From the NCBI GenBank assembly GCA_040755715.1, contig JBFLXN010000014.1, forward strand, positions 1-12,346: 12,346 nt of DNA, written 5' to 3'. The notes under the pieces are model-generated. The model was not told the DNA's origin. It saw only the letters and a program-made list of their open reading frames with translations, and did not search any database. The position numbers and the translations under genes are program-made. The DNA is from Candidatus Edwardsbacteria bacterium (GTDB taxonomy: Bacteria; Edwardsbacteria; AC1; JBFLXN01). Positions 598 through 12,176 of this stretch are shown in pieces (within the stretch, counting starts at the first letter, position 1; each line of letters begins with the position of its first letter).

Positions 598-1502
598 CAG
601 CGTTTAACCTCTGGGATCTGTTTTTCGCTTCCTAACTTCTGCAATCTGACCTCCAATATATTATTATGGTATCTTCTCACAATTCCTTCGCTGTCAACTT
701 TTGCTGGAAGAGAAACCTCTTCATAGTAGTTAGATTCGGGAGTTTTACAAGAGACGGTAAGTCTATCTTCATCTACCCCTAATAATATATCCTCTTCCTG
801 GGCACCTTTTAATTCCATAATGATGTTTAGATGGTCGCCTTCATCAAAGATATCCAATAACAATTCCTCTTTATCTTTTTTTAATTTATCCCCTCCGATA
901 ATCCACCAGCTAAACATAACTTTCTTTCCTGTGGATTCATCAATCTTACATCTTTGGAATACTAAAACCGGAAAACCTATCAGCTCTTGAGCCGTTGGAT
1001 TAATAATATTTCTTACCCTGTGGAGAATATCCATATGATTTGGCGCATTATAGCTGTGAGCCAATTCGTCAATGGTGGCATGTCTATTTTGCCAGACAAA
1101 AAGAAGTATATTTTGGCTCTCAGGATCTAACTCTTTGGCAATCTTATCTATTCCCTCTTGATTTATTTCCAATAGGCTTCTTTCAAATATCTTATTTTTC
1201 CACATCTCTACATCTTTTACCATAATCCAGGCCTTTGAAGCAGTTGCACCGCCTTGATTTCTATAAGAGATACAAAGGGCGTCCTTACTTCTTAATGTAA
1301 AACCCCTCTGTTGAATGCTGATTCCTTTTATATTTTCTAAGGACGTCTGGAATATAATCCTCGCCGGCTGCCAAAGAAAAAGCCTCAGGTTAGTCAGGTA
1401 CAGATGCCCTGGTTTCCAGCCGCTGCGTAGATTATCTTTGTAAAAACCCGGATCGCTTAGTATAACCTCTTCATTCGCTTTTAATTCAGGCTTATTTTTC
1501 AT
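597..1502 (-). CDS. PH/GRAM-like domain plus possible winged-helix module plus C-terminal alpha-crystallin (Hsp20) domain fusion protein
   Basis: The track ORF is 597-1598, and the codon at 1598 is TTG. The N-terminal motif GWKPGHLYLTNLRLFLWQ resembles bacterial PH/GRAM (G-x-LY-x-T-x-x-RL). The C-terminus, LLLDIFDEGDHLNIIMELKGAQEEDILLGVDEDRLTVS...VRRYHNNILEVRLQK, reads as an alpha-crystallin domain. The start is uncertain. ATG 1502 gives an 11-nt overlap with the upstream ORF. ATG 1565 is preceded by GGAAAG. TTG 1598 is the longest option. Confidence 0.8.
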   Translation of the reverse strand: MKNKPELKANEEVILSDPGFYKDNLRSGWKPGHLYLTNLRLFLWQPARIIFQTSLENIKGISIQQRGFTLRSKDALCISYRNQGGATASKAWIMVKDVEMWKNKIFERSLLEINQEGIDKIAKELDPESQNILLFVWQNRHATIDELAHSYNAPNHMDILHRVRNIINPTAQELIGFPVLVFQRCKIDESTGKKVMFSWWIIGGDKLKKDKEELLLDIFDEGDHLNIIMELKGAQEEDILLGVDEDRLTVSCKTPESNYYEEVSLPAKVDSEGIVRRYHNNILEVRLQKLGSEKQIPEVKR

Positions 1503-1767
1503 CTTTTCTGTAGTGTTTATAAGTAAAACCTGGATGTCTTGCACCACCGGGTTTGTTATCTTCATATTCTTTCCGTTTATATTTTGACCTTTTATCAAAT
1601 TCTACCCCTGTAGAATGTATTATCTGGGCATCTTCACCAGTTGAGTATTTAACCGAATATCTTCTTCTCTTTTTTGCCCACTCATCCCAGTCCATAGCTG
1701 TGGAGTGTCTCACCTTTGTGCCGCGGCCAGTAGAATACCCTGAAGTTTTAGGTGTCTTGGATTTCAT
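1492..1767 (-). CDS. small basic protein with four [HY]-S-T-[GA] repeats (hypothetical)
   Basis: ATG at 1767, preceded by AAGGGATAA (SD-like). The ORF fills what would otherwise be a ~180-nt gap in a compact operon. The motif occurs four times as GYSTG, HSTA, KYSTG and HSTG. Its codons differ mostly at wobble positions (CAT/TAC/CAC/TAT; TCT/TCA/TCC/TCT; ACA/ACT/ACA/ACT; GGG/GGT/GCT/GGC), which argues for selection at the protein level. Confidence 0.55.
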   Translation of the reverse strand: MKSKTPKTSGYSTGRGTKVRHSTAMDWDEWAKKRRRYSVKYSTGEDAQIIHSTGVEFDKRSKYKRKEYEDNKPGGARHPGFTYKHYRKDEK

Positions 1768-1782
1768 TTATCCCTTTTTTTC

Positions 1783-2355
1783 CTATTTCCATTTCCAATT
1801 ACAGGTCTTCCAATCATCAGGCACAGAAGGATGGTCTAAAATTCCTGTTTTCCCGCCTGCGTTATCAGTCTCCTTGACTACGTCCTCCTCGTCGACTTTG
1901 GGACTTTGCGGGGCAGGGGACGGAGCTTCCTCACATGGTTCATCTTGAGAGGAATCGAGGGCTTCAGCTGCTTCTTCCTCTTCTACGACCTCTTCGAAGA
2001 CTATCCCGCATTTCGGACAAACTGTTGTGTTTTCTTTTACGGCTGTGCCACAGCTCACACATTCATATCCTTCTATCTCTTCTACTTCTTTTTTGGTCTC
2101 TTCAGTGCCCATACTACCTCCAAGTTCTTTCTCGCCCTCGCCTTCGCCCTTAACCTGTTCTTCTCCCAAGGAAGTAATCCTGTATAAAGCAAACCTACCG
2201 GGCGAAAGCCTTTCTATATACCCTTTCTCCCACAATTTTTTGCATATATCATAGGCATAATTTATTGTAACCCTTAAGTTCCCGGCAATAGTTACGGTAT
2301 TTCCCTGTTTAATTTCCTTAAATTTTTCTAAAATCTTTTTCTCGTTAGGGGTCGT
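1783..2355 (-). CDS. winged-helix DNA-binding domain plus acidic linker plus zinc ribbon protein (putative regulator); non-canonical or damaged start
   Basis: The track ORF 1783-2235 begins at an internal TTG. The frame stays open upstream to the TAA at 2361-2359. That upstream part encodes the rest of a complete wHTH: TPNEKKILEKFKEIKQGNTVTIAGNLRVTINYAYDICKKLWEKGYIERLSPGRFALYRITSLGEE. A perfect SD, AAGGAGGT, lies at 2368-2361, with ACG 6 nt downstream at 2355-2353. There is no ATG, GTG or TTG between 2358 and 2236. The zinc ribbon is CVSCG-x11-CPKCG. Confidence 0.6.
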   Translation of the reverse strand, partial: TTPNEKKILEKFKEIKQGNTVTIAGNLRVTINYAYDICKKLWEKGYIERLSPGRFALYRITSLGEEQVKGEGEGEKELGGSMGTEETKKEVEEIEGYECVSCGTAVKENTTVCPKCGIVFEEVVEEEEAAEALDSSQDEPCEEAPSPAPQSPKVDEEDVVKETDNAGGKTGILDHPSVPDDWKTCNWKWK

Positions 2356-2405
2356 CTTTTACCTCCTTATGTTCTTGGTTATTATTCTATCCTTATGCCA
2401 ACATT

Positions 2406-2858
2406 TCAATATTCGATAGATACAGATTTCCACTTCTTTTCGGCTCTACTCCCTTTGCCTTGGCGCCCTACTTTTTCTTGAAGAGTAGTCAATCTATTGG
2501 GTCCACGATTACGAATTACCAACCACGACCCACGAGTAGGTCCAGATAATTTAATCTCGGCTCGAGAGTGAGGTCCGAGTTTTGTCTCCTCTAACACATC
2601 ACCTTCTAAGGTAAGCCTTCCATTTTCATCTATCCTGCCTTGACTTTCCATCATAGTAACTTCGAACTGTGAAAGGCGCGGGACCATGCTTTGCAGATGA
2701 TAAACAATCAAATATGGCCACCGCATGCTTCCTTTAATCCTTACTACTTTAATTCCCACTGGGCTTGCGAGATTTAATCCCGCTTCCCTTCGAATATTCG
2801 AAGGAATAGATAATCTACCCTCTTCATCAATTTCGCTAAATCCTTTTAACAGCGGCAT
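2406..2858 (-). CDS. tandem AbrB/SpoVT/MraZ-like (swapped-hairpin) domain protein, putative DNA-binding
   Basis: There are two copies of the D-x-x-GR-L/I signature. The first is [21 protein letters not shown] and the second is [21 protein letters not shown]. The ATG at 2858 overlaps the Hsp70 gene end by 23 nt. Confidence 0.7.
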
Positions 2859-4602
2859 CTTTTGTTTCTATCTTTAGATTTCTCTTTATCCGTTTAAACG
2901 CATTATAGACAATCTCAACCAGCTTTCTTAATTCATCAATTTTTACCCTGGTCTCTTTATATTCACCCTTGGATAAAGTTGTCTTTATTGCCAGGATTAG
3001 TTTCTCTATTTTTTCTACATCTGACCTATCTATTAGACCCTCTCCTTCTTCCAGAACCATCTCTGCTGCTTGTATCATACTTTCCGCTCGAATGCCCATT
3101 TGAATCTCTTCTTTTCGCTTTTGGTCTTCCTTGGCATGAATTCGGGCATCTTCTATCATCTCGTTAATCTGGTCCTTGGTCAGCCGGGAAGAAGAACTGA
3201 TCTGGATACTTTTTTCATTATCGGTATGTAAATCCAAGGCTCTGACTTGTAAAATCCCATTGGCATCTATATGGAATGTCACCTCAATCTGAGCTTCACC
3301 CCTTCGACCGGGTGGAATATCAGTAAGCTCAAACTTACCCAGACTTATATTATCGAAGCTCAGGAATCTCTCTCCCTGCAAGACATGGATATCGACCTGA
3401 GTCTGGTTATCTTTAGCTGTCGTAAATATCTGACTGCTGGATGTAGGAATGGTGGTATTTCTTTCTATGATCTTAGCAAATATCCCTCCCTCAGTCTCAA
3501 TTCCTAAAGAAAGGGGAGTAACGTCTAACAATACCACATCTTTTATTTCCCCAATCAAGATATTGGCTTGAATTGCTGCGCCAAGAGCCACTACCTCATC
3601 CGGATTTATATCCTTATAAGGTTCTTTGCCCAGAAGCTCTCGAGCGAGCTTTTGCACAGCAGGCATTCTGGTGGAGCCTCCTACCAAAACTACCCTGTCT
3701 ATCTGGCCGGGGTTGAGCTTTGCATCAGAAAGGACCTGTTTAGTAGGCTCTATCATCTTCTCTAATAAATCCCTGGTTAGCTCTTCAAACTGCTCTCTAC
3801 TCATAGTCAGATGCAGATCCATATCTTGTATGAGAAATGGGATTCTGATATCTGCAAACCTTTTTGTGGAAAGTTCTTTTTTTGCCTTCTCTGAAGCCTC
3901 TTTCAACCGCTGTAAAGCCACCCTATTTCTTCTTACATCCACTCCATGCAACTTCTGAAAATTATCAGCCAAATAATCCATTATCCTCTGGTCCCAATCA
4001 TCTCCGCCAAGATGTGTATTTCCCCCTACTGCCTTCACCTCAAACACGCCATTGCCCAACTCTAAAATAGATACATCGAAAGTGCCTCCACCCAAATCCC
4101 ATATTAGAATATAGTGTATATCCTGCTTGTGTAAGCCGTAGGCCAGGGAAGCAGCAGTAGGTTCATTTATAATCCGCATTACCTCTAATCCGGCTAAGGC
4201 GCCTGCCTCCATAGTCGCCTGGCGCTGGTTATCATTAAAATATGCAGGAACTGTAATTACTGCTTTCTCTATTTTCTCGCCCAAATAATCTTGCGCATCT
4301 TCCTTGACCTTACGAAGGATTAAGGCCGAAATCTCTTGGGGGGTAAATTTTCTCTCGTCAATCTCTACCCCATAATCAGTGCCCATCCGACGTTTAATAG
4401 ATGCAATGGTACGTTCTGGATTTGCAACTGCCTGGGTTCTGGCAAGATTGCCTATCAGCTGCCTCCCTCCATCGGCAAAGGCAACCACTGAAGGAGTAAG
4501 CCTTCCGCCTTCAGCATTGGGTATAATCTCAGGCCTCCCATTGTTTATAAAGGCGGCTACTGAAAAGGTAGTGCCTAAATCTATTCCTATTACCTTACTC
4601 AT
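2836..4602 (-). CDS. dnaK: Hsp70/DnaK-family chaperone paralog (588 aa)
   Basis: Hsp70 motifs present: [56 protein letters not shown] substrate-binding domain ([13 protein letters not shown]) and a helical lid are also present. The true start is the ATG at 4602-4600 ([12 protein letters not shown]), in an ATGA overlap with the upstream stop. The 34-aa extension in the track lies inside the upstream gene. Confidence 0.93.
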
Positions 4603-5672
4603 TTGGCTACCTGGGCTATTTTCTTCTTTAACCGTGGGCTGACCCAGCCGCAGTTTACGCAACCCTTTTCTAATAGCTCTAAGGCGTTTGCCTTTTTTCC
4701 GCATTGAGGGCAGGCTTCTGTTCTTTCTCTAAATGATATGATTCGGGTAAGCGCCCTCTCCCACTCATACATTCCCTCTCCTGAAAAAGAGGCAACCTTT
4801 CTTTGAGAACCACCTTCACCCAGCCCTTGCGCGCAAGAGCTGGGTTCATATATTACGTCAAAGACCTTTTTCTTCTTTAATACCGGGCTCAAATTCCTTA
4901 CATCTATAGCAGAACCTAATATCTTTTCTGAAGGGACTTCAAAAGCCAATCTCTTTTCAAAATCATACCACCAGCATAATCTCTTATTTGTTATATACAG
5001 ATGACCGGGCTTCCAGATACCATCTGATGAGGCCATATGCCAGGCCTTGCCCTTGTGAGTAATCGTTTCTCCTTCTGTCAGGAAATCTAATGTCTCTTCC
5101 TCATATTCGGGTAGAATAAGGTTTTCATCAATTATAAGTCCGCCTAACTTTATCGCCTCTTTTATAGACTCACCTAATTTATCTATCTCCACAGACCGCA
5201 GACGCGCTAATCTATCATCCTTAAGAATAAGTAAGAGCGTATCTTCTTGTATCAAGAGCCCCTTTATCTCATCTAAAGAGGTTTGAAACATCACTTCATT
5301 AAGCTCTTGATTCATGAGCAGCAGTCTTTTATCAGTTAAATAAATCTGCCCCGGTCTCCAACTAACATAGATTCCTTTGGCATAAAAAAAAGAGCCCAAC
5401 ATCTTAAGTTTAAGCTCTTCTCCCTGGATTAAAGAAATCTCTTTTTTAGCTCTATTATCTTTTTCCCAGGCGCGAATCTTCTCATCCCATGCCTTCATCA
5501 TGCCATACTCGAGCATAGTCTCCATGCCGGCCAGGGCGGCTCTTAAATTAACACCGATTAAAGGGATGCCCGCCACAGAGATGATAATGTCAGCGTTGAT
5601 CACCAACCCCTTATCCAGGACCCTATCCAATAAATCAACCAATGTGACCCGTGCATCTCTGGTTGGCTCCAT
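4599..5672 (-). CDS. GvpA/J/M-family (GvpM-like) N-terminal domain fused to two PH/GRAM-like domains and a C-terminal zinc ribbon
   Basis: The N-terminus [49 protein letters not shown] matches the gas-vesicle structural core (LxxVxDRxLDKGxV...). Two PH-like motifs follow, [15 protein letters not shown] and [16 protein letters not shown]. The C-terminus is [25 protein letters not shown]. The ATG at 5672 is preceded by AAGGAG. Confidence 0.85.
4815..4848. repeat. second copy of the 26-bp palindrome (one mismatch), flanked by direct ttca, inside the GvpM-like fusion CDS
   Basis: cccagcccttgcgcgcaagagctggg lies at 4819-4844, with ttca at 4815-4818 and 4845-4848. Element plus one flank is 30 nt, or 10 codons, so it is in frame. 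It encodes [10 protein letters not shown]. Confidence 0.7.
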
Positions 5673-7468: not shown

Positions 7469-7819
7469 TCATTCTGCCTTTATATCTTTTGCCTTGGCGC
7501 TTACCCAGCCACACCAGGGACAGCCCTCATCAAGTAATTCTTCTGCCAGAACTTTTTTGCCGCACTGTGGACAAAGTTCTTTACCCTTCATGGCTTCTTT
7601 CCAGGCTTCTGTTTCCACATTAGTCCCTGATGGAAACTCAAGGCCATACTTTGCTGCTGTCTCAAAAGAAGCCAGGGCTGCCCTTATCTTAATTCCCAAA
7701 AGCTCTACTCCGGCAACAGATATGGCGATATCCGCATTAATCACCAGGCCTTTGTCTAAAACCCGGTCTATGACATCAACCAAAGTAACACTTGCATCTT
7801 TTGTCGCTTCTATTGCCAT
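7469..7819 (-). CDS. gvpJ: gas vesicle structural protein, GvpA/J/M family (GvpJ-like), with a C-terminal zinc ribbon
   Basis: [53 protein letters not shown] is the gas-vesicle core, and it looks J-like from memory of the haloarchaeal GvpJ sequence. The C-terminus is CPQCGKKVLAEELLDEGCPWCGWVS. The ATG at 7819 is preceded by AAGGAGG with an 8-nt spacer. Confidence 0.88.
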   Translation of the reverse strand: MAIEATKDASVTLVDVIDRVLDKGLVINADIAISVAGVELLGIKIRAALASFETAAKYGLEFPSGTNVETEAWKEAMKGKELCPQCGKKVLAEELLDEGCPWCGWVSAKAKDIKAE

Positions 7820-7832
7820 TTCTATTGCCTCC

Positions 7833-8225
7833 TTACCCCGCTACTACACCTTGGCCTTTACATTTGGGGCAAGCCACTGGATGAGGTTTGCGCGGATATA
7901 CCCCACTTCCATTGCAAGTGGTGCATTTTTTAGAAGGTGTCATCCTTGTAACCACCCCTACCCCACCACAGGCTAAACAGTGTATGCGACTTGTAGTATA
8001 TGGGTCTATTCCCTTGCCACCACAAAAATTGCATTTCATTGTCGGGCCAATAATTCTCACCTTACCTTTTCCTAAACACACCTGGCAATCAGAAAGCTTA
8101 GATAAAAGCTGAAAAGGATCTTTTCCTATTCCATTACAAAAGGCGCATATAACTTCCACTTTATTTTTTTCTATTCGCCTAAGCTCCTCAGGTGCAATCG
8201 TAGCCCATTTTGGTTTTTTAGCCAT
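7833..8225 (-). CDS. DnaJ-type cysteine-rich zinc-finger protein with six CxxCxGxG repeats and no J domain
   Basis: Six repeats: CAFCNGIG, CQVCLGKG, CNFCGGKG, CLACGGVG, CTTCNGSG, CPKCKGQG. No HPD motif is present. The ATG at 8225 is preceded by GAGGAGGTG. Confidence 0.85.
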   Translation of the reverse strand: MAKKPKWATIAPEELRRIEKNKVEVICAFCNGIGKDPFQLLSKLSDCQVCLGKGKVRIIGPTMKCNFCGGKGIDPYTTSRIHCLACGGVGVVTRMTPSKKCTTCNGSGVYPRKPHPVACPKCKGQGVVAG

Positions 8226-8930: not shown

Positions 8931-10895
8931 TTATCCATATATTTCCTTAGAAAAATCCTTTAATCGGTCAATACCTTTGATCTGATAAGGGAAAAGCGGC
9001 AGCTGACCAATTTGATATTGCGAAGACCTTTCCCTCTCTATTTCCTGGATAATCTTAATCTGCTCACCTCTTTTTGACTCGCAAAAATTACATCTAGTTT
9101 TCGGAAGAATCATATTAACCAGAATATAATGAGAGGGGATGTTAAGTCGCTTAAGGTTCTCAAGGAGGCCGTCCATCTCACTCTTGCCCATAGCCTCTGG
9201 AATACCTACAACCACAAATTGACACCTCGCCGGATCTGTGAGAATCTCCTGTATTTTTCTCACCTTCTTAGAAAACTCTATCATCTCTTCAGCCTGTTTG
9301 GCCAATCGTACTATCCCCTTATATTTTATAAGTAATTTAAATATTGCATTTAGCCACTCCCTGGCAACCTGAGGCATCTCTAGAAACCGCAATAGGTGTC
9401 CTGTAGCTGCTGAATCTAAGATATATATATCAAATTTTCCTCCATCTATAAATTCCACCACCTTAGCTAAAGCCATAATCTCATCCAAACCGGGAGGAGT
9501 AAGTGAGATAAGTTCCTCTAAAATCTCCCTATCGAACTTAACATCCACTCCACCTCCGATAAATTTACTAAATACCTCGCTTATTTGGTCTTTATAATCC
9601 TTTTTAAAATTCTCAAGCAACTTCAAAGCATCTATCTCCAGGGCAAATAGATTATTGGGGACAGTCTCCTTCGGGGACAGTCCCCCTATCTGAGTGAGAT
9701 TATCTCCAATAGATAGACCAAAACTATCGGATAGCGAATGGGCAGGGTCGGTAGAAAAGACTAAGACTTTTTTAGAGGGGTATTTTTTGGCCATACTAAG
9801 TGCAGTGGCTGAAGCTATGGATGTTTTACCCACCCCACCTTTTCCCCCAAATATATATAATATAATGCCTTTCTCTATTAATTGAGGCAATTTAATAATA
9901 GAGAAAATCTTAGACTTGAAATCAAAAGGTTTCTTTCCAATGGGAAGGCGATGTGGCTTCTCTTCAAATAAAACCTGGGCATATTCCTTTAGTCGATCCA
10001 TCCCTCTGATTTGATATGGAAATATCGGTATCTGATGAAGTTCGAGATTTGCGAATTTTTGCCTGATTATATCTAATTCTTTCTTTTGTTCTTTCTCTTC
10101 CTTAGAACAAAAGGGACACCTGTTTTGACTACTTTTAATTTGATTGACGATAATAGATTTCACTGAAATTCCATATCCTTTTAATATCGCCAACAACCTT
10201 TCTGTCTCTTCTATAGCCAAGGTCTCGGGTTTAGTGACAGGTATAAATTCTGTTGAATCGCGGTTCTTTAGTAACCGACTTACTCTATCCACGTCGCTTT
10301 TCACCATCTCTAAAAATTCATCAGCGTCGTCTTTTTTGTATTTGCCAGCAAAATGGCTGGCTAAAAATCTATGCTTAGATTGCATCAAATCTAAAACTTC
10401 GACCCACTTTTTCATCTGAAGGGGTAAACCTAAAAGCCTTATGGTATGTCCTGTAGGTGCGGTGTCCAAGATGATTAAATCGTATTTCTCTTCTCTTAAG
10501 ATATTAGCTATTTTTATAACCGCCATTATCTCATCTAACCCTGGAATAGAAAGGGAAAAGAAATTCTCTATATCTTGCCTGTCGAAATAAGTTCCTCTCT
10601 CAACGATCTTTTTCATCACCAAATCATATTTCTTTTTAAAAAGAGAGGCCTCTTCCTCAGCTTTTATTTCTAAAGCCCAAAGATTGTTTAAATCTTTTAT
10701 GGGTGTAATGGTATTACCAACAGTATAGCCCAAACTATCACCCACTGAATGAGCAGGGTCACAGGATACAATCAAAATCCTCTGCTTGGGATAATGTTGG
10801 GCTAAATAAAGGCCAGTAGCAGTCGCTGATGTAGTTTTTCCGCAACCCCCCTTTCCACCAAAGATTATTAGACGCCGCTTCTCGCTGATTTTCAT
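8931..10895 (-). CDS. tandem-fused ArsA/Get3 (TRC40)-family ATPase (654 aa, two homologous halves)
   Basis: Half 1 has GGKGGCGKTT, CDPAHSVGDSLG, DTAPTGHTIRLLGLP and a CPFC motif. Half 2 has GGKGGVGKTS, TDPAHSLSDSFG, DSAATGHLLRFLEMP and a CNFC motif. Each half ends in a matching tail: IPIFPYQIRGMDRLKEY in half 1 and LPLFPYQIKGIDRLKDF in half 2. ATG at 10895. Confidence 0.92.
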   Translation of the reverse strand: MKISEKRRLIIFGGKGGCGKTTSATATGLYLAQHYPKQRILIVSCDPAHSVGDSLGYTVGNTITPIKDLNNLWALEIKAEEEASLFKKKYDLVMKKIVERGTYFDRQDIENFFSLSIPGLDEIMAVIKIANILREEKYDLIILDTAPTGHTIRLLGLPLQMKKWVEVLDLMQSKHRFLASHFAGKYKKDDADEFLEMVKSDVDRVSRLLKNRDSTEFIPVTKPETLAIEETERLLAILKGYGISVKSIIVNQIKSSQNRCPFCSKEEKEQKKELDIIRQKFANLELHQIPIFPYQIRGMDRLKEYAQVLFEEKPHRLPIGKKPFDFKSKIFSIIKLPQLIEKGIILYIFGGKGGVGKTSIASATALSMAKKYPSKKVLVFSTDPAHSLSDSFGLSIGDNLTQIGGLSPKETVPNNLFALEIDALKLLENFKKDYKDQISEVFSKFIGGGVDVKFDREILEELISLTPPGLDEIMALAKVVEFIDGGKFDIYILDSAATGHLLRFLEMPQVAREWLNAIFKLLIKYKGIVRLAKQAEEMIEFSKKVRKIQEILTDPARCQFVVVGIPEAMGKSEMDGLLENLKRLNIPSHYILVNMILPKTRCNFCESKRGEQIKIIQEIERERSSQYQIGQLPLFPYQIKGIDRLKDFSKEIYG

Positions 10896-11443: not shown

Positions 11444-11728
11444 TCACCTCCTCTCCTCTTTGTATTTCCTGATTGCCTCTAATCTTTCCAGGATTTTTCC
11501 TTCTTTCTTTTTATATTCCTCTTCGTTCACCTCGCCCATCTCAAAGCGCATCTGAAGTTCTAGCAACTCTTCCTGCACTTTAGACTCATCGGTCACCTCA
11601 GTCTCGGCTGTCTCCTTTAGTTTATTTCCGATCCATACCACCCCCTTTATAGGCAACAAAAAAGGCAATAAAATATCGGTTAATCCAAAACCCGATCCTT
11701 TAGAACCACTCTCAGGCTTTTCCTTCAC
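11444..11728 (-). CDS. gvpG: gas vesicle protein GvpG
   Basis: LTDILLPFLLPIKGVVWIGNKLKETAETEVTDESKVQEELLELQMRFEMGEVNEEEYKKKEGKILERLEAIRK fits the GvpG pattern. The present start is the GTG at 11728-11726, in a GTGA overlap created by the inserted element. See the findings for details. Confidence 0.85.
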   Translation of the reverse strand: MKEKPESGSKGSGFGLTDILLPFLLPIKGVVWIGNKLKETAETEVTDESKVQEELLELQMRFEMGEVNEEEYKKKEGKILERLEAIRKYKEERR

Positions 11729-12020
11729 CCCGCCCTTCCTTTCCTTGCAATGCCAAGTCTAGATTTTAATCTTGCCAAACCACTTCCGAACTTCTTCAAG
11801 CTTTTTTCCCTTTCAAATGCCACATCTTTAGATCTATAGGCCTCAAAATATATTAACTCCACTGGTAACATCTTTCTAGTTGAATATATCTTTCCTTGCT
11901 TATGCTCCATTAACCTTTTTTTCAAGTTATTCGTACATCCTATATAAATCCAGTCTTTAACTTTACTACTGAGTAAATATATATAATGCCAATTAGGCTT
12001 TTTAGGAAGGGCGGGGTTCA
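11724..12020 (-). mobile_element. putative miniature autonomous element: TTCA | 12-bp TIR | GIY-YIG ORF | 12-bp TIR | TTCA
   Basis: The plus strand has ccccgcccttcc at 11728-11739 and its perfect reverse complement ggaagggcgggg at 12005-12016. Direct ttca copies flank these at 11724-11727 and 12017-12020. The ORF start (xTG) and stop (TGA) both fall within the flanking TGAA copies. Confidence 0.5.
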
Positions 12021-12021
12021 C
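11725..12021 (-). CDS. small GIY-YIG nuclease family protein (98 aa)
   Basis: WHYIYLLSSKVKDWIYIGCTNNLKKRLMEHKQG...ELIYFEAY...AFEREKSLKK carries the GIY/YIG motifs, the conserved Arg, the Glu and the RE-x-x-x-K signature. Start is the GTG at 12021 and stop is the TGA at 11727-11725. The ORF is bounded by 12-bp inverted repeats. Confidence 0.85.
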   Translation of the reverse strand: MNPALPKKPNWHYIYLLSSKVKDWIYIGCTNNLKKRLMEHKQGKIYSTRKMLPVELIYFEAYRSKDVAFEREKSLKKFGSGLARLKSRLGIARKGRAG

Positions 12022-12176
12022 CCTGCCCTTCCTTTTCTCGCAATGCCAAGCCTATATTCAATTTGGCTAAACTGTTTTTGCATTTCTTTAAAATCTTTGC
12101 CCTGCCCTTAAGCTTAAAATGTGGGATTTACCCAGCCCTTGCGCGCAAGGGCTGGGTTTAGGAAGGGCGGGGTTCA
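12017..12176 (-). mobile_element. degenerate, internally deleted tandem copy of the GIY-YIG element
   Basis: The TIRs are ccctgcccttcc at 12021-12032 (one mismatch) and ggaagggcgggg at 12161-12172, with flanking ttca at 12017-12020 and 12173-12176. The copy keeps the first 7 codons (ATG AAC CCC GCC CTT CCT AAA = MNPALPK). It also keeps the last 11 codons plus stop (RLGIARKGRAG*), which differ from the intact copy only synonymously. Its interior is disrupted by stops and a 26-bp palindrome. Confidence 0.45.
12127..12160. repeat. 26-bp perfect palindrome cccagcccttgcgcgcaagggctggg flanked by direct ttta
   Basis: The palindrome spans 12131-12156 and is exactly self-complementary. Direct ttta copies sit at 12127-12130 and 12157-12160. 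It is GC-rich in an AT-rich context. Confidence 0.7.

Follow-up and report, generated by a model that had tools for sequence, protein, structure and literature searches.

Probable recent loss of the ATG start codon in an otherwise intact winged-helix gene of a chaperone-rich gas-vesicle cluster

We found that a gene for a putative DNA-binding regulator, located within a gas-vesicle (gvp) cluster, has probably undergone a genuine and recent change of its ATG start codon to ACG. The gene is otherwise intact, and the same lineage has also deleted a block of partner genes. The window, by which we mean the whole 12,346-nt stretch of DNA that was analyzed, is a gvp cluster with every gene on the minus strand. 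An earlier note on this DNA had offered non-canonical initiation, a sequencing error or recent inactivation as possible explanations for the missing start codon, and the explanation that we favor, recent inactivation or attenuation, was among them. We prefer it because the change is unique to the window, the open reading frame (ORF) is intact and constrained, and the lineage has also lost the partner block.

Results

Reading frame and start region

The minus strand was re-read, and the positions that the earlier note gave for the TAA, the Shine-Dalgarno (SD) sequence, the ACG, the ATT, the TTG and the stop codon all proved correct. The start region and frame contain the following features.

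1783 to 2355, minus strand: full-length frame for a winged helix-turn-helix (wHTH), Zn-ribbon and W/K-tail protein, 190 codons from ACG; from translation, collinear alignment with 29 homologues and 89% amino acid identity to the 190-aa homologue P0031
2353 to 2355, minus strand: ACG at the ancestral ATG position, T to C at 2354 on the coding strand (A to G on the plus strand); from DNA alignment of orthologous loci
2361 to 2368, minus strand: SD sequence AAGGAGGT, 5 nt 5' of the ACG, anti-SD duplex of -13.5 kcal/mol; the same layout of GGAGGTAAAA plus ATG occurs in loci L012 and L011
2381 to 2409, minus strand: sigma-70-like TTGAAA-17-AATAAT, 10 of 12 matches, 5' of the SD; a weak candidate

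The frame has no internal stops or frameshifts and ends in ...DDWKTCNWKWK before a TAG codon at 1785-1783. The last base of AAGGAGGT is also the first base of the in-frame TAA at 2361-2359, and the spacer between SD and ACG is AAAAG, which places AAG directly before the ACG. This SD is perfect and optimally spaced, and its pairing energy at the ACG is the joint strongest among the 18 genes of the window. As the earlier note had claimed, no canonical start precedes the TTG at 2235, which is the first ATG, GTG or TTG in the ORF list (1783 to 2235, 150 aa). An in-frame ATT codon lies at 2334.

Several other accounts of the start region were considered. The remaining ORFs of the window start with ATG, GTG or TTG in 17 of 17 cases, so unusual start usage across the genome was rejected. 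Readthrough or frameshifting from the upstream gene was rejected because that gene lies in a different frame and its end is 45 nt away from the TAA embedded in the SD; the target frame 5' of the TAA is also devoid of any start codon. To our knowledge, C-to-U editing of mRNA, as occurs in plant organelles, has no bacterial precedent. Promoter-like sites in the region were no more numerous than the shuffled expectation, mRNA structure at the start region was not significant (z = 0.21), and the window contained no Rfam families or tRNAs.

Comparison with orthologues

A search of 5.8 billion proteins returned 30 matches. The best of these, P0001, is the NCBI annotation of the window locus itself: 150 aa from a TTG, an exact match to the locus, with 'Candidatus Edwardsbacteria' as its source and a contig of 27 kb. 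The homologues matched with E values of 1e-38 to 1e-93 and 99% query coverage. Twenty-seven of the 29 span the N-terminal 40 residues and are considered full-length here; these begin with M-T-[S/P/Q]-N-E-K-K, and the window reads T-T-P-N-E-K-K in the same alignment, with the initiator Met of the homologues opposite the window ACG. The earlier note had proposed such a comparison, reasoning that orthologues starting at the position equivalent to 2235 would overturn its interpretation. No such starts were found, and all 27 full-length homologues begin at the ACG position.

We then compared orthologous DNA loci from metagenomes, MAGs and Logan assemblies. Nine non-redundant loci (L001, L002, L004-L008, L011 and L012) have ATG at the start position. 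When these are aligned with the window, all nine carry T as the second base of the start codon and the window alone has C; the flanking columns (A.GAC) are the same in all 10 sequences, and the AAG before the start codon is common to six of the nine orthologous loci. These alignments indicate that the window ACG is the ancestral start codon, mutated by a single T-to-C change, and that its placement behind the SD did not arise by chance. They also indicate that the strong SD is inherited and not compensatory; we rejected compensatory SD strengthening because the ATG-bearing L012 and L011 have the same GGAGGTAAAA.

The window protein belongs to a gvp-cluster wHTH/Zn-ribbon/WK-tail family (P0002-P0031), with which it shares collinear full-length similarity from the N-terminal MT(S/P/Q)NEKK to the C-terminal PEDWKTCNWKWK. 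All near-invariant family residues in the alignment (A1) are kept in the window except the initiator Met, the canonical ATG being absent from the conserved family position. The closest allele, P0031 of locus L008, comes from a different MAG, has 91% nucleotide and 89% amino acid identity, encodes 190 aa and starts with ATG; this ATG allele is reproduced in L009. A single-sequence scan of genome contigs gave no matches, and a profile scan found only L007.

Selective constraint

Pairwise dN/dS between the window gene and L008 was 0.24-0.32, compared to 0.18-0.32 between intact members. When changes were polarized by L011 and L012, with the start codon excluded, the window branch carried 10 nonsynonymous and 8 synonymous changes (omega ~0.32), and neutrality was rejected at P = 0.019 on these small counts (18 substitutions). 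Omega on the L008 branch was 0.31. Of the usual marks of a pseudogene, the window gene has a disabling mutation, the loss of its sole SD-supported start codon, and it has neither relaxed constraint nor additional frameshifts or stops. Because the ORF is intact and constrained, either the start codon was lost very recently or the gene is still in use, and the signal of purifying selection fits an ACG-initiated functioning gene as well as a very recent loss. If the inactivation is real, it would be a recent event, because the intact ORF has no relaxed constraint.

Protein architecture

From its N-terminus, the protein has a MarR-like wHTH, then an acidic linker and a putative C4 Zn ribbon, and after these a long disordered acidic region followed by a W/K-rich C-terminal motif. 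Its conserved parts map to the window as follows.

2146 to 2355, minus strand: wHTH, residues 1-70 counted from the ACG, with H1, b1, H2, H3 (recognition helix), a b2-b3 wing and H4; from AF2 and Foldseek
2008 to 2061, minus strand: putative C4 zinc ribbon, CxxC-x10-CxxC, with Cys99, 102, 113 and 116 counted from the ACG; near the Pfam cutoff and conserved in most homologues
1786 to 1833, minus strand: C-terminal motif HPSVPDDWKTCNWKWK-COOH, which follows the disordered acidic linker; its P, W, C and W are near-invariant across the family (alignment A1)

The earlier note had described a full wHTH. Structure modeling bears this out, and the domain remains below Pfam and NCBIfam cutoffs. In an AF2 model built from the family alignment, residues 1-70 have pLDDT values of 88-95 and the order H-b-H-H-b-b-H, with H3 at residues 32-45. 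Foldseek matched this domain to MarR-operator DNA complexes (5h3r, E = 1.7e-4, rmsd 2.2 Å over 72 columns). Among Pfam and NCBIfam HTH models, TrmB gave E = 0.011 (16 bits against a cutoff of 25.6) and MarR (PF01047/PF12802) gave E = 0.13 (12.6 against 24.6), and a sequence-profile search of the PDB had no significant match. A MarR dimerization domain, which is built from N- and C-terminal helices in a protein of ~140 aa, is absent, since the model has a 70-residue wHTH followed by disorder and the Zn ribbon. A DNA-binding regulatory role is likely.

The ribbon forms two b-hairpins with pLDDT ~77 in the AF2 model, and everything outside the wHTH and ribbon is disordered. It is the only family signal in Pfam and NCBIfam, with scores just under cutoff (PF13240 Zn_Ribbon_1, 23.2 against 25; PF13248 Zn_ribbon_3, 22.1 against 27; P0031 reaches 26.7 against 27). 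Its spacer is x10 (C-V-S-C, GTAVKENTTV, C-P-K-C) and not x11 as the earlier note had it. That note had also called the DDWKTCNWKWK tail odd, but no other signature of the family is as well conserved in the alignment. The full architecture is found in ~6 cluster representatives of 1.84 billion, together with a few wHTH-only proteins of 63-107 aa. In some related clusters a stand-alone wHTH paralogue of ~70 aa lies just 5' of the wHTH/Zn-ribbon gene (L002 979-1173; L003 6001-6300; P0038, P0046, P0066, P0074, P0086 and P0104); it is absent from the window.

Annotated products

Public annotation of the locus starts from internal TTG codons.

2233 to 2235, minus strand: TTG, the NCBI start of the 150-aa P0001; residue 42, within recognition helix H3; anti-SD +0.6 kcal/mol, no SD
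2167 to 2169, minus strand: TTG, the Logan start of the 128-aa P0032; anti-SD -4.1 kcal/mol

Both products are gene-caller artefacts, because the ORF is intact and constrained and the TTG at 2235 lies inside the recognition helix with no SD. Its position within H3 means that the annotated 150-aa product would lack the DNA-binding domain.

The gas-vesicle cluster and the deleted block

Apart from the wHTH/Zn-ribbon gene, the window encodes GvpF/L, GvpK, GvpO, a GvpG-like protein, two Hsp20-type proteins, Hsp70, an ArsA-like double ATPase and a DnaJ-type CXXC protein, together with the genes listed here.

7469 to 7819, minus strand: GvpA/J-type gene
4599 to 5672, minus strand: GvpA/J-type gene fused to GRAM/PH-like domains
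2406 to 2858, minus strand: upstream neighbor, 150 aa and MraZ/AbrB-like, in a different frame from the wHTH/Zn-ribbon gene; sub-threshold MraZ matches, syntenic in L002-L007
1768 to 1782, minus strand: 15-nt spacer between the wHTH stop and the orf91 ATG, the junction of the deletion described below
1492 to 1767, minus strand: orf91, a small basic ORF and the downstream neighbor

The cluster is unusually rich in chaperones, with Hsp70, the ArsA-like double ATPase, the DnaJ-type CXXC protein, two Hsp20 domains and GRAM/PH-like fusions to GvpA and Hsp20 (597-1598, 2836-4704, 4599-5672, 7833-8225 and 8931-10895). Neither a chaperone-rich gvp cluster of this kind nor a wHTH gvp regulator was described in the literature searched. 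The wHTH/Zn-ribbon family is rare and always occurs in this type of cluster.

Wherever the flanking sequence suffices, the gene order is Hsp70, MraZ-like, an optional DnaJ-CXXC gene, the wHTH gene, TPR75, o93, o139, a second ArsA, orf91, GRAM-Hsp20 and orf88. TPR75, a 75-aa TPR gene, lies directly 3' of the wHTH gene in 10 of 10 other loci with 69-100% amino acid identity (for example L008 2348-2575, L009 1301-1552, L011 796-1065 and L012 1126-1383). The TPR protein is 75-89 aa long, its gene often overlaps the wHTH gene, and it retains 69-89% amino acid identity between loci, whereas the regulator retains 50-60%. TPR domains commonly bind C-terminal peptides, and the conserved C-terminal motif of the regulator is therefore perhaps a TPR ligand. 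The WKTCNWKWK motif (C-terminal peptide HPSVPEDWKTCNWKWK) is the putative ligand, and the two proteins may form a regulator-partner module.

TPR75, o93 and o139 are absent from the window, and the upstream Hsp70 and MraZ-like context is present. The spacer downstream of the wHTH stop can be aligned with L002 for the first ~20 nt past the stop codon, after which the window continues directly with the orf91 ATG. Judged against L002, this is a clean deletion of ~3.7 kb that removed TPR75, o93, o139 and the second ArsA; it is seen in 12.3 kb of a 27-kb contig, and the block could sit elsewhere in the genome.

The cluster is also a mosaic. The GvpA-GRAM and Hsp70 proteins of L007 ('Nitrospirota' MAG042) have 99% and 96.5% amino acid identity to those of the window, but the MraZ-like and wHTH proteins have only 58% and 50% (window 2836-5672 compared to L007 1-2003, and window 1783-2858 compared to L007 2081-6621). 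The wHTH gene itself is closest to L008, with homology that spans the SD to 3 nt past the stop, a gene-sized block. Source records label the related genes P0001, P0012, P0013 and P0031 as Candidatus Edwardsbacteria, Nitrospirota and Patescibacteria, and these mixed labels suggest either that contigs were binned into the wrong MAGs or that the gvp cluster has been transferred horizontally.

Three further observations concern other genes of the window. The start of GRAM-Hsp20 is doubtful, since its TTG at 1598 overlaps orf91 (1492-1767) by 107 nt; the Logan version has 322 aa and the L008 orthologue 301 aa. The Hsp70 start (2836-4704) is also doubtful: the protein has 622 aa from the first ATG and 588 aa in Logan, and several orthologues align from residue 35. 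Finally, a 98-aa GIY-YIG-like ORF (11725-12021, minus strand) is flanked by a 42-nt direct repeat (11724-11765 and 12017-12058, 88% identical), and the 20-nt TGAACCCCGCCCTTCCTAAA occurs exactly at 12001-12020 and 12157-12176, beside a perfect 14+14 palindrome at 12130-12157. The region from 11724 to 12176 resembles a small mobile GIY-YIG cassette that has inserted immediately 5' of the gvpG-like gene.

Discussion

We propose that a single-base transition in this lineage converted the ATG start to ACG. The strong SD would still load ribosomes at the ACG, and initiation there would occur, by analogy with E. coli, at no more than ~1% of the AUG level. In E. coli, ACG belongs to a class of codons that initiate at 0.01-1% of AUG, mostly with Met (bioRxiv 10.1101/063800); these are E. 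coli values, and the window lineage is uncultured. ACG also serves as a 'defective' or 'cryptic' start that needs editing to ATG for expression (PMC13067763; 10.1101/263657). Because ACG initiation is so inefficient in E. coli, the full-length protein would be absent or made in traces, and the allele would be poorly expressed, as a null or severe hypomorph. The start mutation accompanies the deletion of TPR75, o93, o139 and the second ArsA-like ATPase, so the whole regulatory and accessory module may be decaying or being remodeled in this organism. Ordinary gene decay is the most likely explanation, rather than a new mechanism of translation.

One alternative is that the true codon of the organism is ATG and that the C, a single-base difference in a MAG, reflects a consensus error or minor-variant call. 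A Logan contig, L010 of run SRR29635779, matches the window with 100% identity over 11,630 nt, ACG included, so two different assemblers agree over 11.6 kb; because the second yields the identical sequence, an error is less likely than a real change. This contig is a duplicate assembly of the window, and both assemblies may come from the same reads or library, which makes a systematic read error or a mixed population conceivable. ACG is otherwise absent from the aligned relatives. The site has no homopolymer or repeat context, and the window allele has no ATG version in its 90% cluster in a 15-billion-protein collection. Common sequencing-damage artefacts are C to T and G to T, and a coding-strand T to C is not in that direction. 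Exact-protein look-ups of P0001 and orf91 gave no matches, and that of the MraZ-like neighbor gave only the same Logan contig. Overall, we consider an artefact quite unlikely. A second alternative is that a truncated protein, started at TTG 2235 or ATT 2334 and keeping the Zn ribbon and tail, is the real product. PGAP selected TTG 2235, which no other canonical start precedes, and table 11 permits ATT as a rare start codon, which at 2334 would cost only 7 residues. Neither codon has an SD, the ATT pairing at only -3.0 kcal/mol, and starting at TTG 2235 would sacrifice H1, H2 and most of H3. None of the full-length homologues starts there, the residues before this TTG are among the most conserved of the family, and the codons 5' of 2235 are still under constraint. 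We therefore regard a truncated product as highly improbable.

A third alternative accepts the ACG and holds that the gene still works, with the SD driving enough initiation at ACG, by initiator tRNA and with Met, for the needs of a low-copy regulator. Selection would then have kept this attenuated allele, perhaps to compensate for the loss of the TPR partner, and the deletion of the partner block in the same lineage is a conceivable reason for lower dosage. The perfect and optimally spaced SD, the intact ORF with its constrained branch, and the detectable Met-initiated protein that ACG yields in E. coli all fit this idea. Against it, the ACG is unique to one sequence among ~30 homologues and nine non-redundant DNA loci, and the strong SD is shared with ATG-bearing relatives. 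The measured efficiency of ACG is also low enough for use as an OFF state, and our literature search found no natural bacterial ACG-start gene. Functional initiation at the ACG is thus unlikely. Its most specific form is a naturally ACG-started gene whose maximal SD allows trace but sufficient regulator synthesis, selected after loss of a TPR protein that may bind WKTCNWKWK; this is speculative, and we think it improbable. If it were shown, functional ACG initiation here would be a rarity among natural bacterial genes, but the evidence does not favor it.

The main value of the finding lies in annotation: the public 150-aa and 128-aa 'hypothetical proteins' are wrong, being truncated versions of the product of a 190-codon winged-helix regulator gene with a mutated start. 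On the reading that we prefer, start-codon loss, the locus would also show clearly an allele that has lost its start with no other decay as yet, in coincidence with the deletion of a partner block, and would illustrate how gas-vesicle accessory modules are eroded or remodeled in uncultured bacteria. A by-product is perhaps more important. The very rare family that joins a wHTH, a Zn ribbon and a W/K motif, paired with a small TPR protein, is undescribed in the literature that we searched and is a candidate regulator for the study and engineering of non-model gas-vesicle systems.

Several known systems resemble parts of this gene. Its N-terminal 70-residue domain superposes on the MarR wHTH bound to operator DNA, but unlike MarR/TrmB regulators the protein has no dimerization helix bundle and no above-threshold Pfam match, and its wHTH is instead joined to the acidic linker, ribbon and W/K-rich C-terminal motif described above. 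The haloarchaeal activator GvpE and repressor GvpD are likewise regulators encoded inside a gvp cluster, although their architecture and host clade differ, and Pfam/NCBIfam scans of the window protein revealed no similarity to either. With respect to the start codon, infC (IF3) also uses a near-cognate codon, AUU, behind a functional SD for attenuated translation of a regulatory protein. Different species share the infC codon, which belongs to an autoregulatory loop, whereas the window ACG is found only in the window and L010, its relatives all have ATG, and ACG is a weaker initiator than an infC-type AUU in E. coli. Base-editor reporters in E. coli (10.1101/263657; PMC13067763) carry the same ATG-to-ACG substitution behind a functional RBS and are near-OFF until reversed by a C-to-T change. 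They are artificial E. coli constructs, and the window holds a natural allele of an uncultured bacterium; they nevertheless offer a measure of the likely consequence here. Start-lost alleles and pseudogenes are also similar, with a one-base change in the ATG of an intact ORF for which annotation pipelines chose an internal TTG (P0001, P0032). The window ORF differs from these in having no other decay and a maximal SD, which makes residual ACG initiation conceivable.
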